A DNA stretch of 64,000 bases from an uncultured Acidobacteriota bacterium. GTDB taxonomy: Bacteria > Acidobacteriota > Terriglobia > UBA7540. Shown one piece after another: positions 58,628-64,000 of this stretch. Below the pieces are notes generated by a model. The model was given only the letters and a program-made list of their open reading frames with translations. It did no database searches and was not told the DNA's origin. The stretch's first letter is position 1, and the number at the start of each line of letters is the position of its first letter. The stretch spans positions 64,001 to 128,000 of the forward strand of contig CAWDSK010000001.1 of the NCBI GenBank assembly GCA_963804995.1, given 5' to 3'. The position numbers and the translations under genes were made by a program.

Positions 58628-59016
58628 CACCTCCCGGTTAACCTCGCCGATCTTTTGTTGAATTCCGGAGGTAATGCCTTGCCAGCCGGCTGCGGCGTTG
58701 CCTTGTTTCTTTTGAATCATTCGGCTCACCTGCTAGCCCTCTTTCGCCAGACGATAACAGGCAATCTTCAATTCACTATAACGCAATTGTTTCCTAAACT
58801 GTGGCTCCGCCGACGTGAAAGCATTTTCTCCCTTATCGCGCCGCTGTCCAAGCAATCTCAATTCAAATTTGCTGGGCGAAAAGCTGAAGCAGACTCCTTG
58901 CCATCCGTCGGGCAGCAGATTCCAAAGTCTCTGTTACCACGATCAAATCCCTTCTGCGGCGGCTCGTTCGAGAGTACCTCCACTACTACAACTACGCTTC
59001 ATACTGCCCCACCTCG

Positions 59017-61092
59017 CTATGTAGTTGAAAAACCTAACTTCCTTTGTTCAGACGTTGATATTGCGGGTCCCCGATTGCTGCCACGGACACGCGCGACGAA
59101 CTTTGCTGCGGCTTCTGTCTCCAGTGCACGCTGGCTAAAAACCCAGGGCCCATCGGCAAGGGGATGATCGGCTTCAATCTCGCCTCGTTCCACCGCCAGG
59201 CGGAGCGTCCGGGAACTCACGCCTAAGATGCAGGCCGCTTCCGTCAGGTTCATCCATTCTTCCGACTCGCCCCTGTCGATCGAGTGACCAGGAATCGCGT
59301 GATGACTGCGTAGTGAGGTCACCCGTTCCCGCGTCCAGCGATTACCTCGCCCAGTCAGTAGACCGCTCCGATTTAGCGCGCCGGCCAGCTGATCATCCGA
59401 ACAGATCCGCGCCAATACTCTTACCGCCTCGACGGTCTCTTTCGAGGTGTGACTGCTATTCTGTCCACGCCGCCGCCGGGGTAAACGCAGGTCGGTGTGC
59501 ACGCCCCCCTTCCAGTGAATCATCAGAATGATTTCACCTGCCTGCGCATCCACATCGACGACGATCTCATGGATCAGCGTTCGTACAATGCGTTTTTTCA
59601 GGCGAATATCGGCTCCCGGGTCATTCCACACGGCTTCAAGGTCGGCCGCCAAGTTCTCGAATTCTTCCCGCGTGGGTGCAGCTGCCTGACCCTGGTCCTG
59701 GACGTGCTGTTCGATTCGTAGTTCGATTTCGTGCACTCGCTGCAGGGCTTGGTCCCAGCGACGCTCCAATTCTTCTGTCACCAAGCGGTTTTCCGGGTCC
59801 GCGGCATCGTACTGTTTCTGGGCACGCTGCGCGGCATAGCGTGCTGCCTCCAGATCTCGTCCCAGGGCCTCCAAGACCTCGTCGCGCTGACGCGCTTGTT
59901 CTTCGCTGGCCAGCACTGCCGCTTCTATCGCTGCCGGTTGCACGACCCGCACCACTTCCTTTGCCATGATTTCGTCAACCAGCCTTCCGCCAAAGGCGAT
60001 GCAACGCGCTTCGCCATTGTCCAGCCAGCCTCGACGGCACCCGTAGCGGAGCACGTCATGCTCGTTCCCCGTATACCAGACGGTCAGCTTACGACCACAG
60101 CGCCGGCAACGCAACAGACCGGCCAACAAAGCCGGACCACTTCGGACGGCGCCCGCTTGACCCCATCCGCGAACATTCTCCGCCATCGCCTGTTGAATCC
60201 GCTCAAACTCTTGCCAACTCACGTAACCTTCATGAGCGTTCGGAATCAACGCCAGCCACTGCTCCCGCGGTTTGCGCCGAGAACCTCGGCGGGGCTCGCC
60301 GTTTTCATAATGCAATGACAGTTCGGTCTTTCCGTACGCATAGGCACCGCCGTAGATCGGGTTGGCGAGCAAGCGGTGGATCGTGCCATAAGAAGGACGC
60401 TTCCAGCCTGTTTCACCTTGGGGGGTGTGCACCGGAAGCTGCAAGCCGTGTTCCAGGAACTACAACAAGGTCTGACGAACGCTCCCCAGCTCGAGAAATT
60501 TGTGAAACACCAGCAGGAGGGCTTGCTGTACCCGACGGTCGGGATCTTTTTCCAAACCTGACTCTTCGGTCTTGAGATAACCGACCGGTGCGGCCACCAG
60601 CAACTCGCCCCGGCGCGCCTTTTCGCGTCGTGCTTCCACCGAGCGCTGGCGCAGCAGGTCCAGTTCATATTCGTTCAGGCTCCCCTTCAGCCCCAACAGT
60701 AATCGATCGTTACTGTGCCGGGGCGAATAAACCGTCTCCTGGTCGATCAACACCGTATCGACGACACGGCACACTTCCACCAACTGCTGCCAGTCTCGGC
60801 TGTTGCGAGCGAAGCGGGAGACCTCTCGAGCGGCCACCGCTCCGACCTTGCCCAAACACACCTCCGCCACCATGCGTTCGAAACCGGCGCGCGTTACCGT
60901 CCCGGCCGCGGACCGGCCCAGGTCTTCATCCACGACCTCGATCTCGCGCCAGCCTAGCTGTGCGAGGCGTTCCTGCATGGCATACTGCAACTTCTGGCTT
61001 TCCAGGTTATGGCTGACCTGATAAGCCGACGACTGACGAACATACAGGATCGCCTTGCGTTCCAGATGCTGCGTTTTGATCTTGTCACTCAT
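59017..61092 (-). pseudogene. Large serine recombinase (resolvase + recombinase + Zn ribbon) with an in-frame TAG at 60460-60462
   Basis: AILYVRQSS, DEDLGRSA, EVSRFARN, LLANPIYGG, HEGYVS, LLAGLLRCRRCG; the two ORFs are in the same frame. Confidence 0.9.
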
Positions 61093-61276
61093 TCCGCGCC
61101 TCCTTCTGATGGCCGGAGGCGAGGACCGGGCTTAAGTGCTCGCGCAGCAGTTGCGCCAGCAGCTTCAGGGTCTTCTGCTGGATTTCCTGAGGCAGTCTCT
61201 GCCAGGACGGACTCAGGTGGGGCGGATGAAACAATTTGAATTGATTGGCTGTCGGTCGGCTCTCTGACGTTCGCAT
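61085..61276 (-). CDS. Small accessory protein of the recombinase element (63 aa)
   Basis: AGGAGG 5 nt before ATG 61276; WQRLPQEIQQKTLKLLAQLL helix; stop overlaps the recombinase start. Confidence 0.65.
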   Translation of the reverse strand: MRTSESRPTANQFKLFHPPHLSPSWQRLPQEIQQKTLKLLAQLLREHLSPVLASGHQKEARNE

Positions 61277-61619
61277 CAGCACCTCCTGGGACTAGCAAGG
61301 AATGATGCTGAGCTTGTAGCACAACCTCTGGGCTGACCTGGGGGGCACCTCGAAGCAGGTCCTTCAAATCCAGCAATGCTTCGCAGGACACCGTGGGAAC
61401 TGCCATCTTACGCATCCGACAGCAGGTTGCAGAATCAAACATCCATTGCGGCACGTCCAAGCACCGAGCATCCGGGCTCTCCTCGATGCCGCACCGATAT
61501 ACCGCTTGCCTATTCTTGACGAGAGTTTCATAAGTCCAGACCGAACGACCGTACCACGGATGCCACGGGTAAAAGACTTCTCGAGATTCAGTACTATGGG
61601 TGTTGAGTTGTCGAGTTGT
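61089..61619 (-). CDS. Start-less accessory ORF (YPWHPW motif) running from the very end of the element; completed only on the circle
   Basis: Frame open from 61619: TTRQLNTHSTESREVFYPWHPWYGRSVW...LDVPQWMFD; no start codon before TTG 61460 in the integrated form. Confidence 0.65.
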   Translation of the reverse strand, partial: TTRQLNTHSTESREVFYPWHPWYGRSVWTYETLVKNRQAVYRCGIEESPDARCLDVPQWMFDSATCCRMRKMAVPTVSCEALLDLKDLLRGAPQVSPEVVLQAQHHSLLVPGGADANVREPTDSQSIQIVSSAPPESVLAETASGNPAEDPEAAGATAARALKPGPRLRPSEGGAE

Positions 61620-61974
61620 ACCACGAAGATCGCGTCCATGACGCCCTGAACAAAGATACGCCTACCGGCCGTTTTCTCGAACGGAGGCGACCGATGCAGC
61701 AAGAGTTCTGGCTTACCTCGCGTCGGTGGCCTCCATCACCGCTATCAATGGCGGACAGCCGCCTGGAGTGCATACGCGATCAAGCCGTTGCCCATCTGTC
61801 GCCGTCTTCTTCCTGTGGAGTCAAAGCCAAGCCTGTCAGAACTCCATCAAAAACTGCCGAAACTCCGTCTGCGCGTGCGCCCTCGTCATGTGGACAAAGG
61901 AGGGCGCGAGGTGGCGGAGAGATCACCCCTTTTCTCAGGCGGCTTATTTTTGAGGACACACAAGTTGCCTGCTC

Positions 61975-62863: not shown

Positions 62864-63279
62864 TGAGTGGTCTGGGTTTTTTGTACCACTTTCAGAGTGA
62901 GTTTTCGGCTCCTTCGGGGCCTGTCAGGTTGCGGCTAGCCGCGACCTGACAGGCGAATTCGGTCGGCGTCCGCTCTCCGAGAGCCCGGTGAGGACGGCTC
63001 TCATTGTACTCCCTCCTCCAAGCCTCGATGATCGCTTTGGCCTCACTCAGCGTCATGAACCAATGGGCGTTCAGGCATTCCCGTCGAAAGGTGCCGTTGA
63101 AGGATTCCACGTGGGCATTGTCGGTGAGCTTGCCCGGCCTGGAAAAGTCGATCCGCACGCCGCTCTGATATGCCCACAAGTCCATCGCCTGACTGGAAAA
63201 TTCGCAGCCGTTGTCGCAGAACAGCAGCTTCGGCGCTCCCCGTTGCGCCTGGATCCGGTTCAACACCCTTACGACGGCC
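62864..63279 (-). pseudogene. IS3-family transposase 3' remnant with its terminal repeat
   Basis: CDNGCEF, FSRPGK.TDNAHVESFNG..RRECLN, WRREYNESRPH; end motif TGAG...TTTTGTACCAC at 62864; cut at 63280 by the next IS. Confidence 0.85.
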
Positions 63280-63795
63280 TGTCCGTGGCGGATTGCTAAT
63301 TTGCCTGGAATTCCGCGAATTTTCAGTTTCTTGCTACGATACGGATATGCGCGATCTCGTGATCCTTTTCATCCATCTCATCACGACCGTCGCCCGACTT
63401 GCAAGTCCCGGCGGCGTCCGTTCCGTAGTTGCCGAGTCCGTCCTCGTCAAACATCAACTGCTGATCCTCAATCGCTCGCGCCAGCGCGCTCCCCATCTCC
63501 GCCTATCGGATCGCACCGTCGCCGGTTGGTGCGCTCTGTTTATGCGGCCGTCCCGGCTGATCCGTTCGGCCATCGTTCTGAAACCTTCGACTCTCTTGAG
63601 CCTCCAGCAGGCCCTGAGGAACCGAAAGTATCGCCGGCTCTTCTCATCCGAGCGCAAGGGAAGGCCCGGCCCAAAAGGACCCAACAAAGAACTCATTGAA
63701 GCCGTTGTCCAAATGAAGCAGCGCAATCCCACCTGGGGCTGTCCGCGAATTGCTCAACAGATTGCCTGGGCCTTCGACATCCCCATCGACAAAGA
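63280..63795 (+). mobile_element. IS481-like element copy 2, 3'-truncated (transposase from ATG 63347)
   Basis: Begins TGTCCGTGGCGGATT; nearly identical to 6491-7005; identity stops abruptly at 63796. Confidence 0.88.
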
Positions 63796-64000
63796 GGTTG
63801 TGTCAAGAATTTTTGTCCCCTAAGGCGATAACCCATTGAATTGCTGGGAGAAACTGGATTTTCTGCTTTCTCCCCCCTCCGGGTGCGCTTGACTAGGACG
63901 TTGGCGTGAGGTGCGGTCGGGTTGCCGCGCTTAAGTTCCTGGACGTAACTGCGTCGTGGGGCTTGACGGCAAACAAAAAGGGCGGTGAAGTCTCTCTTTC

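Follow-up and report, generated by a model that had tools for sequence, protein, structure and literature searches.

A small serine-recombinase element from an Acidobacteriota genome with an accessory gene apparently divided between its two ends

The window analyzed here, a stretch of 64,000 nt from an uncultured Acidobacteriota bacterium (assembly GCA_963804995.1, contig CAWDSK010000001.1, positions 64,001 to 128,000 of the forward strand), contained at positions 58987-61620 a 2.63-kb insertion-sequence-like element, whose mover was a large serine recombinase (LSR). The element is a decayed copy of a family of insertion-sequence-like elements moved by such recombinases, and consisted of three genes on the same strand, open reading frame A (ORF-A), ORF-B and the recombinase (Table 1). 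The body of ORF-A began at one end of the element without a start codon, and a Shine-Dalgarno (SD)-like motif, a start codon and a short leader were located at the other end. We consider it probable that this is a split-gene LSR element, in which ORF-A is complete only when the two ends are joined and its product serves the recombinase as a circle-specific cofactor. The same end structure was found in 50 of 53 related loci, so that the split layout, as judged by sequence comparison, recurs beyond chance, and bona fide DUF5372 elements belonging to three groups have it as well.

Division of ORF-A in the window copy and in related loci

Past the recombinase stop, the minus strand read C, GAGGTG, GGGCAGT, ATG, AAG CGT AGT TG and, at the left end of the element, TA (58988-58987). 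The ATG, 14 nt past the stop and preceded by the ribosome-binding-site-like GAGGTG, had no gene body behind it within the element. At the right end, a frame of 176 codons was present from the terminal base onward, in which the first in-frame ATG, GTG or TTG was a TTG at 61460; in the flank, the frame was closed by a TAG at 61664-61662, 14 codons upstream, with no start codon in between. When the ends were joined over one TA the frame was kept, with five leader codons followed by the 176-codon body. Every sequence element described in an earlier, sequence-only reading of this DNA was therefore present, although that reading had overlooked ORF-B, a TAG within the recombinase gene, the remnant state of the host gene and the target motif. 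The stop of ORF-A overlapped the recombinase ATG (ATGA), and ORF-A, ORF-B and both ends were still intact in the window copy. The attachment site would thus lie between codons 5 and 6 of ORF-A, and integration would part the SD-like motif, the ATG and the leader from the body. With the ends joined, either in an excised circle or in a head-to-tail tandem, ORF-A would become the last, translationally coupled gene of an ORF-B-recombinase-ORF-A unit, and only from this joined form would the full-length protein be made.

The ends of the element were tested against empty sites. Uninterrupted paralogous transposase genes in the same genome (CAC TAC TAC CAC GAA GAC) placed both ends at the TA named in the sequence-only reading, and removal of the element in silico restored the host frame, as it had claimed (...L-R-R-L-V-R-E-Y-L-H-Y-Y-H-E-D-R). 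The duplicated TA proposed there held as the crossover, with the amendment that three bases (TAC) were common to both junctions of the window copy. Relatives such as L004 shared only TA, which is therefore the 2-bp crossover dinucleotide, found at both junctions and once in the empty site; AC as an alternative core was ruled out on the same grounds. The insertion was likewise confirmed to lie in a transposase frame, of which only a remnant of about 34-35 codons was left on the left side. Two truncated copies elsewhere in the genome, one on contig C5 (88% identity) and one on contig C6 (99%), had the identical right-end base. The three copies were similar for only 13 nt past the right end, a consequence of their insertion into related transposase genes at one and the same motif.

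A scan of one genome per species yielded 233 encoding stretches, from which 80 loci were kept, spanning the Acidobacteriota, Burkholderiales, Accumulibacter, Planctomycetota, Gemmatimonadota, Alphaproteobacteria and others; 53 of these had an ORF-A start and a full recombinase gene. Circularization of homologous elements in silico had been put forward with the earlier reading as a check, and in 50 of the 53 loci the SD-like motif, the start codon and the frame were conserved across the junction, the tail motif being absent from L031, L050 and L053. In each of the 50 loci the recombinase stop was followed by a purine-rich GAGGTG-like motif (all six bases matched in 29 loci, at least four in 49), a start codon (ATG in 47, GTG in one, ATA in two), twelve bases and the core, with the start 13-14 nt past the recombinase stop in 45. 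The length of the element was 2606-2680 bp in 45 loci, the other five having a deletion or insertions, and in 48 the junction ORF had 170-198 open codons, the remaining two loci being decayed copies. The sequence-only reading had taken the ORF-A body to lack a start of its own, and indeed no internal start ahead of the motif Y-P-W-H-P-W was conserved, the first internal starts being scattered over codons 9-60. The cores were TA/TA in 49 of the 50 loci. The remaining locus, L013, had TG at both junctions (1139-1140 and the far end); its attachment and target cores evidently had both differed, and the first body codon was changed to one for Ala.

Near-identical copies at different sites indicated recent mobility among the relatives. 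The element matched 174 plasmid records and was common on rhizobial plasmids. A copy on plasmid p42a of R. etli CFN42 (L084, 131493-134086) had the same end structure, and its RefSeq record annotates ORF-B and the recombinase, and not ORF-A. In the gene table of PLSDB, which is incomplete, there was no feature under most of the plasmid matches.

Several lines of evidence showed that ORF-A is a real gene read from the end of the element. Arm-by-arm comparison of 43 unique junctions revealed that the ATG, 13-15 nt from the core, was kept in 42-43 of the 43 tail arms, and that the mirror positions in the other arm were the most variable of all, with the majority base in only 16-28 of the 43. Positions 1-4 and a CCC at positions 20-22 were common to both arms, and the bases flanking the leader ATG varied. 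An ATG conserved in one arm only is what is expected of a start codon, and not of symmetric half-site recognition. The SD-like GAGGTG partly overlaps the GGG/CCC motif of both arms and may also be part of the recombinase site. Within the body, variability was highest at the third codon position over a stretch of about codons 11-95. The region separating the junction from the conserved domain had only two indels, both in frame (three residues gained in L010, one lost in L062), and there were invariant W, P, C and H residues among the relatives. When 33 proteins were aligned, the conserved part set in exactly at the first codon of the element; the upstream extensions were unrelated and differed widely in length, which fits read-through into different flanks. 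Across ORF-B, the ORF-A frame was open in 39 of 41 unique loci, compared with 5 of 41 for the third frame.

A word-indexed search identified 234 homologues of ORF-A, and a profile search 3146 cluster representatives at E ≤ 1e-3, with 1677 at 1e-10 and 359 at 1e-30. Neither ORF-A nor ORF-B matched a family in Pfam, NCBIfam or PHROGs. AlphaFold prediction from 37 sequences gave pLDDT values of 78-91 for residue blocks within 11-90; the predicted fold has four strands and three helices, and behind it comes a disordered tail. Residues ~11-100 are thus predicted to form an SH3-like barrel with helices, and the disordered tail is the part that overlaps ORF-B. A Foldseek search of ORF-A against the PDB gave no match at E ≤ 0.001, and a wide fold search with VIA-align returned only generic SH3, KOW, Tudor and PsaE barrels (best Z 5.6).

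The recombinase, its predicted partner and a second element type

The recombinase had the domains of an LSR, namely a resolvase catalytic domain (Resolvase PF00239, E 1.1e-20), a Recombinase domain (DBD1; PF07508, 1.9e-15) and a zinc ribbon (DBD2; PF13408, 1.5e-5) with an inserted coiled coil. Among 29 aligned recombinases, the catalytic-Ser block Y-V-R-Q-S-S was nearly invariant and four Cys were invariant, and the recombinase of the relative L018 matched the integrase family phrog_95 at 5.8e-60. There was some similarity to an additional excisionase/MerR-like helix-turn-helix (HTH) at the C-terminus (residues ~600-660; 59020-59200, minus strand), scoring 20.9 bits with HTH_17, below the curated cut-off; the corresponding region of L018 scored 14.6 bits with TIGR01764, also below the curated cut-off.

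Modelling of ORF-A residues 1-105 with the C-terminal 480 residues of the window recombinase, from separate alignments, gave ipSAE values of 0.73, 0.73 and 0.72, whereas the best of three controls scored 0.00. Of 157 solved complexes, 116 attained the score mark, as did 2 of 215 mismatched pairs; these counts are only rough as a yardstick for a model made with our own alignments. The runs agreed in at least 73% of contacts, with a partner pLDDT of at least 71. On the recombinase fragment, the modelled contacts were residues 117-123 (the first CxxC of the zinc ribbon), 168-185 and 261-295 (leading into and out of the coiled coil) and 313-323 (the second half of the zinc domain); on ORF-A, they were the W-H-P-W motif and the helix at 68-92. 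Recombination directionality factors (RDFs) bind at the junction of DBD2 and the coiled coil (PMC12286644). The model supports binding of ORF-A to the recombinase at this same junction, an RDF-like property that is present in the model only, and it lends weight to the earlier guess of an accessory protein such as a directionality factor.

As a circle-specific cofactor, ORF-A would signal to the recombinase that the element is free. If it is made only from the joined form, its most plausible action is to promote integration or to suppress the excision mode; it could also act in the other direction. ORF-B, which would be made in both states, could be an excision cofactor or a regulator, and ribosomes translating ORF-A through the start of ORF-B could reduce the amount of ORF-B made from the circle.

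DUF5372 (PF17342) is the Pfam family of Y4bD/Y4pK, a name that comes from one source. ORF-A and two of its relatives had no hit with the DUF5372 Pfam model at E ≤ 10, and so did not reach its gathering score. In the ESM Atlas, the first 105 residues of ORF-A retrieved DUF5372 clusters as 28 of 30 hits, with a score of 0.93. Alignment by hhalign with a profile of 40 DUF5372 proteins gave E 1.3e-4 and a probability of 53% over 82 collinear columns, pairing Y-P-W-H-P-W of ORF-A with H-P-Y-H-P-L of DUF5372; with a single DUF5372 sequence the similarity was weak (E 0.024 over 16 columns). These comparisons suggest a distant relationship of ORF-A to DUF5372.

Four bona fide DUF5372 hits were found in this genome, and ends could be mapped for two copies of a 3.38-kb LSR element carrying genes for the DUF5372 protein (79.9 bits with the Pfam model), a 155-aa HTH protein and the recombinase. 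The insertion point of this element is a TT within the catalytic-Glu motif of genes from the same transposase family. Its DUF5372 frame started from the terminal base and had no start codon, and the far end contained GAGGTG, CAGT and an ATG with four codons that continue in frame over the core. G279, a complete genome of the same class, had eight copies of a 3.35-kb element, with four of the seven that were compared 100% identical to the reference copy L113, and three copies of a second type of 3.49 kb; the split-start layout was present in both groups. Like ORF-A, DUF5372 lies at the very end of an LSR element, with a split start and with an H-P-aromatic-H-P motif in the same place, whereas the long disordered tail overlapping ORF-B is found only in ORF-A. 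The DUF5372 elements examined also differed in having a TT core, the catalytic-Glu motif as target and the 155-aa HTH protein, where ORF-A elements have a TA core, the Y-N-x-x-R-x-H motif and ORF-B. The N-termini of 120 called DUF5372 proteins were heterogeneous, with 14 starting two codons before the junction codon. The split start is thus widespread in DUF5372, though perhaps not universal.

Target choice was analyzed at 46 unique insertion sites (loci L004-L083 and the window). The core TA was the start of a Tyr codon, and the flank followed the pattern TAY AAY/CAY N6 CGN NNN CAY, which encodes Y-N/H-x-x-R-x-H. From 28 flank translations listed, one with a stop and two duplicates were dropped; 23 of the 25 that were submitted matched rve or rve_3, placing the insertion at about profile position 51 of rve_3, and the target transposases belonged to different families. 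Two exceptions, L035 and L070, were inserted in non-transposase genes (DUF6537 and a DUF1559/N-methyl protein) with the base pattern TAY...CG...CA. Since these are unrelated genes with the same base pattern, recognition appears to take place at the DNA level. The element was antisense to the transposase motif, with its orientation fixed in at least 42 of the 46 sites; in known serine integrases, a palindromic TA core cannot set polarity. The TT-core targets of the DUF5372 elements encoded G-N-x-Y-D-N-A, S-P-Q-A-K-G-R-V-E-R or G-W-E-K-G-K-V-E-R. Both element types thus target those codons of rve transposase genes that are best conserved, and inactivate these genes.

Competing readings and known systems

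A number of observations weigh against a gene that is completed only by joining of the ends. The recombinase of the window copy is broken, and the complex with ORF-A is a model only, built with alignments of our own making. The ATG and the SD-like motif lie inside the recombinase-binding arm, so that part of their conservation may be at the DNA level, and the distance from the ATG to the core is invariant, so that the conserved frame may have been inherited once and not selected repeatedly. The junction leader was not clearly carried by any of the 120 or 128 homologous called proteins examined, whose N-termini looked flank-derived or internal; a few had short leaders of 4-6 residues without clear origin. 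Contigs from soil covered the element and stopped at its ends, with no end-to-end joint among those listed; three soil DNA sequencing runs stood behind these contigs, sharing only 0.06-0.07 of words, and there was no RNA run among those listed. A promoter scan found none inside the element on the gene strand and one sigma-70-like site outside it, and terminator-like sites were at chance level in the same scan. Since no circle, junction read, junction contig, junction transcript or junction protein was seen, we infer, and do not observe, expression from the circle only.

The same ground is shared by the possibility that ORF-A is translated in the integrated state, from a start in the flank or a non-canonical one, with the far-end ATG being only part of the binding arm and opening a meaningless short ORF. 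An in-frame ATG, GTG or TTG was available before the upstream stop in 30 of 50 flanks, and recurrent leaders coded by the flank do exist (nine residues long in 8 of 128 homologues, besides the 14 DUF5372 starts mentioned above), so that some integrated copies might be translated. However, the other 20 flanks had no in-frame start (one of them, L028, has no flank in its contig), and the starts on offer were scattered at distances from 6 to 109 codons, antisense to the transposase gene. In the window copy, the ATG that lies antisense to the conserved His codon was out of frame. The invariance of the ATG in the tail arm, opposite the most variable positions of the other arm, and the properly spaced SD-like motif just past the recombinase stop in 45 of 50 loci also speak against this explanation, which we give only a slim chance of being correct. 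A split that is real and has no sensing role is a small but appreciable possibility; here, the attachment site would happen to fall in the 5' end of the last gene, and ORF-A would be an ordinary helper in integration or maintenance whose loss after integration is neutral. Every lineage seen had the same geometry, with the ATG 13-15 nt from the core, which could be a single frozen accident, and some DUF5372 subfamilies may have a start of their own, two recurrent short N-termini being candidates for genuine starts. Against a neutral loss, the layout was kept across Acidobacteriota, Pseudomonadota, Planctomycetota and Gemmatimonadota and with two target motifs, the leader codons varied freely and the start was kept, 39 of 41 loci had no stop in the ORF-A frame along ORF-B before the recombinase start, and directionality control is exerted at the very site where ORF-A is predicted to bind.

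That ORF-A is not a gene at all, with the conservation at the right end due to the recombinase site and to regulatory DNA for ORF-B and the recombinase, we find hardly credible. Such a view could draw on the missing family matches, on the lack of annotation in R. etli p42a and under most plasmid matches, and on the first ~25 nt, which are also an arm of attP. It is contradicted by the period-3 variability over ~95 codons, the in-frame indels, the invariant W, P, C and H residues, the confidently predicted fold, the 3146 cluster representatives, the profile similarity to DUF5372 and a complex model that scored well above its controls.

As a split gene that is completed by joining, ORF-A would combine ideas known from other mobile elements. 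Tn4451 has a circle-specific promoter. It is likewise a small LSR-moved element in which joining of the ends makes a circle-only expression signal, although there the signal is a promoter driving the recombinase, and here it is an SD-like motif and start joined to the body of an accessory gene. Circle-specific promoters are also described for ICEclc (Pcirc) and ICEKp1 (P3'end) (PMC13023037); in these, too, excision is needed before a signal at one end can act on a gene at the opposite end, but they belong to integrative and conjugative elements with tyrosine recombinases, and involve transcriptional control of int with no ORF across the junction. The suicidal tyrosine integrases of the SSV1, pTN3 and pT26-2 type, from archaeal viruses and plasmids, have the att site inside the integrase gene, which is split on integration, and are exclusive to archaea according to a review (PMC8371274). 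The likeness is that the att site falls within a gene of the element itself, and that this gene is whole only as long as the element is a free circle; the difference is that a tyrosine integrase is split there, whereas here a bacterial serine recombinase is left unsplit and a small accessory gene is cut after its fifth codon. TnpX/TndX-like LSR transposons are described, in the Durrant preprint (10.1101/2021.11.05.467528), as having a DUF4368 recombinase and relaxed multi-site targeting; the window recombinase had no DUF4368 hit in Pfam, and the targets at the 46 unique sites shared TAY AAY N6 CGN NNN CAY. With LSR directionality factors (PMC12286644), ORF-A would share a small size, a diverse fold, a modelled position at the DBD2/coiled-coil junction and a gene beside that of the recombinase. 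Those factors are ordinary genes under phage circuits and switch the enzyme to excision, whereas the candidate ORF-A would be made only after excision and may act in the opposite direction.

The element may represent a new form that combines known ideas, i.e., a bacterial LSR mini-element with an accessory gene, neither recombinase nor promoter, that would be assembled by end joining. Among the papers listed from the PubMed Central Creative Commons and bioRxiv literature, as judged by titles and the openings of abstracts, none described this layout or target choice, and no paper on DUF5372, y4bD or y4pK was found there, subscription journals being outside this scope. A wider and more speculative proposal, which we regard as possible without expecting it to hold, is that a widespread class of LSR mini-elements uses DNA topology as a directionality sensor. 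ORF-A or DUF5372 would then be an 'anti-RDF' present only in the circle, where it switches the enzyme from the excision to the integration mode, ORF-B or the enzyme alone would support excision, ORF-A reading over the ORF-B start would be a second layer of control, and the elements would be dedicated parasites of insertion sequences, recognizing invariant codons in two rve motifs, Y-N-x-x-R-x-H and the catalytic-Glu motif, and so disabling the transposases in which they land.

If the split gene works as proposed, it would be a switch coded by topology at the protein level, with the element 'knowing' whether it is inserted or free from the wholeness of one gene. This bears on how minimal LSR elements control direction without a phage regulatory circuit, and would give a context and a testable role to the uncharacterized DUF5372 and its relatives. 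The split layout would also explain the mis-calling of ORF-A genes and their absence from annotations. Recombinases that recognize a short coding motif of many insertion sequences bear, in addition, on the population control of these sequences and on the search for integrases whose direction is set by a cofactor.

ORF-B and the decay of the window copy

ORF-B was located in another frame inside the tail of ORF-A. It was conserved in every locus examined, its stop overlapping the recombinase start in the same way each time. At about codons 131-160 of ORF-A, the most variable codon position moved to the frame of ORF-B. The overlapping frames of ORF-A and ORF-B are therefore both maintained, and both end on the recombinase start. 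In R. etli p42a, ORF-B is annotated as a hypothetical protein, and in the ESM Atlas it was found only among unnamed 63-aa proteins.

The Trp replaced by the internal TAG of the window recombinase was present in all 45 relatives listed and in the partial copy on C5. The stop codon takes the place of an invariant Trp, and the window recombinase gene is therefore not intact but a dead pseudogene. An alternative code reading through TAG was rejected, as relatives have TGG at this position and their recombinase genes end in TAG. No intact copy of the family was found in this genome, which is 92% complete, and the other two copies were truncated; the family appears to be extinct here.

Table 1. Positions of the element, its genes and ends in the window, and of related copies on contigs of the same genome
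Feature	Position	Strand	Description	Compared with
ORF-A leader	58988..59002	-	ATG (59002-59000) and four codons, the last completed by the core T
SD-like motif	59010..59015	-	GAGGTG, 7 nt before leader ATG, 2 nt past recombinase stop
ORF-A body	61089..61619	-	176 codons, the first beginning with the A of the right-hand core; codons 61619->61092, stop 61091-61089
ORF-B	61085..61288	-	AGGAGG 61288-61283, ATG 61276, 63 codons (61276->61088), stop 61087-61085 overlapping recombinase ATG (ATGAGTGA)
Large serine recombinase	59017..61092	-	691 codons including internal stop; 61092->59020, stop TAG 59019-59017	collinear with relatives, residues 1-691
In-frame TAG in recombinase	60460..60462	-	TGG to TAG, motif R-Q-T-L-L-W-F-L-E-H	Trp in all relatives compared
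Left TA	58987..58988	.	crossover dinucleotide, junction with host transposase remnant	empty site in paralogous transposase genes
Right TA	61619..61620	.	crossover dinucleotide	two decayed copies and empty site
Host frame, left part	58888..58986	+	rve-type transposase remnant ending ...R-E-Y-L-H-Y	open for ~34 codons only
Host frame, right part	61621..61672	+	(Y)-H-E-D-R-V-H-D-A-L-N-K-D-T-P-T-G-R; rve-transposase motif Y-N/H-x-x-R-x-H...T-P
Truncated copy	C6:840365-841153		ends within recombinase gene; adjoins another rve transposase gene
Truncated copy	C5:1173760-1174983		ends after ~230 recombinase codons
DUF5372 element copies	C6:304399-307774; C6:764623-767999		ends mapped	intact transposase gene
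Further DUF5372 hits	C1:136219-136452; C6:885630-885863		the C1 hit lies 8 kb beyond the window

An Rfam search over 58700-61900 gave no match at E ≤ 0.1. More insertion-sequence debris was located near the element, with a C-terminal fragment of rve_3 at 62892-63266 on the minus strand and an ORF with HTH_32 at 63170-63823 on the plus strand.

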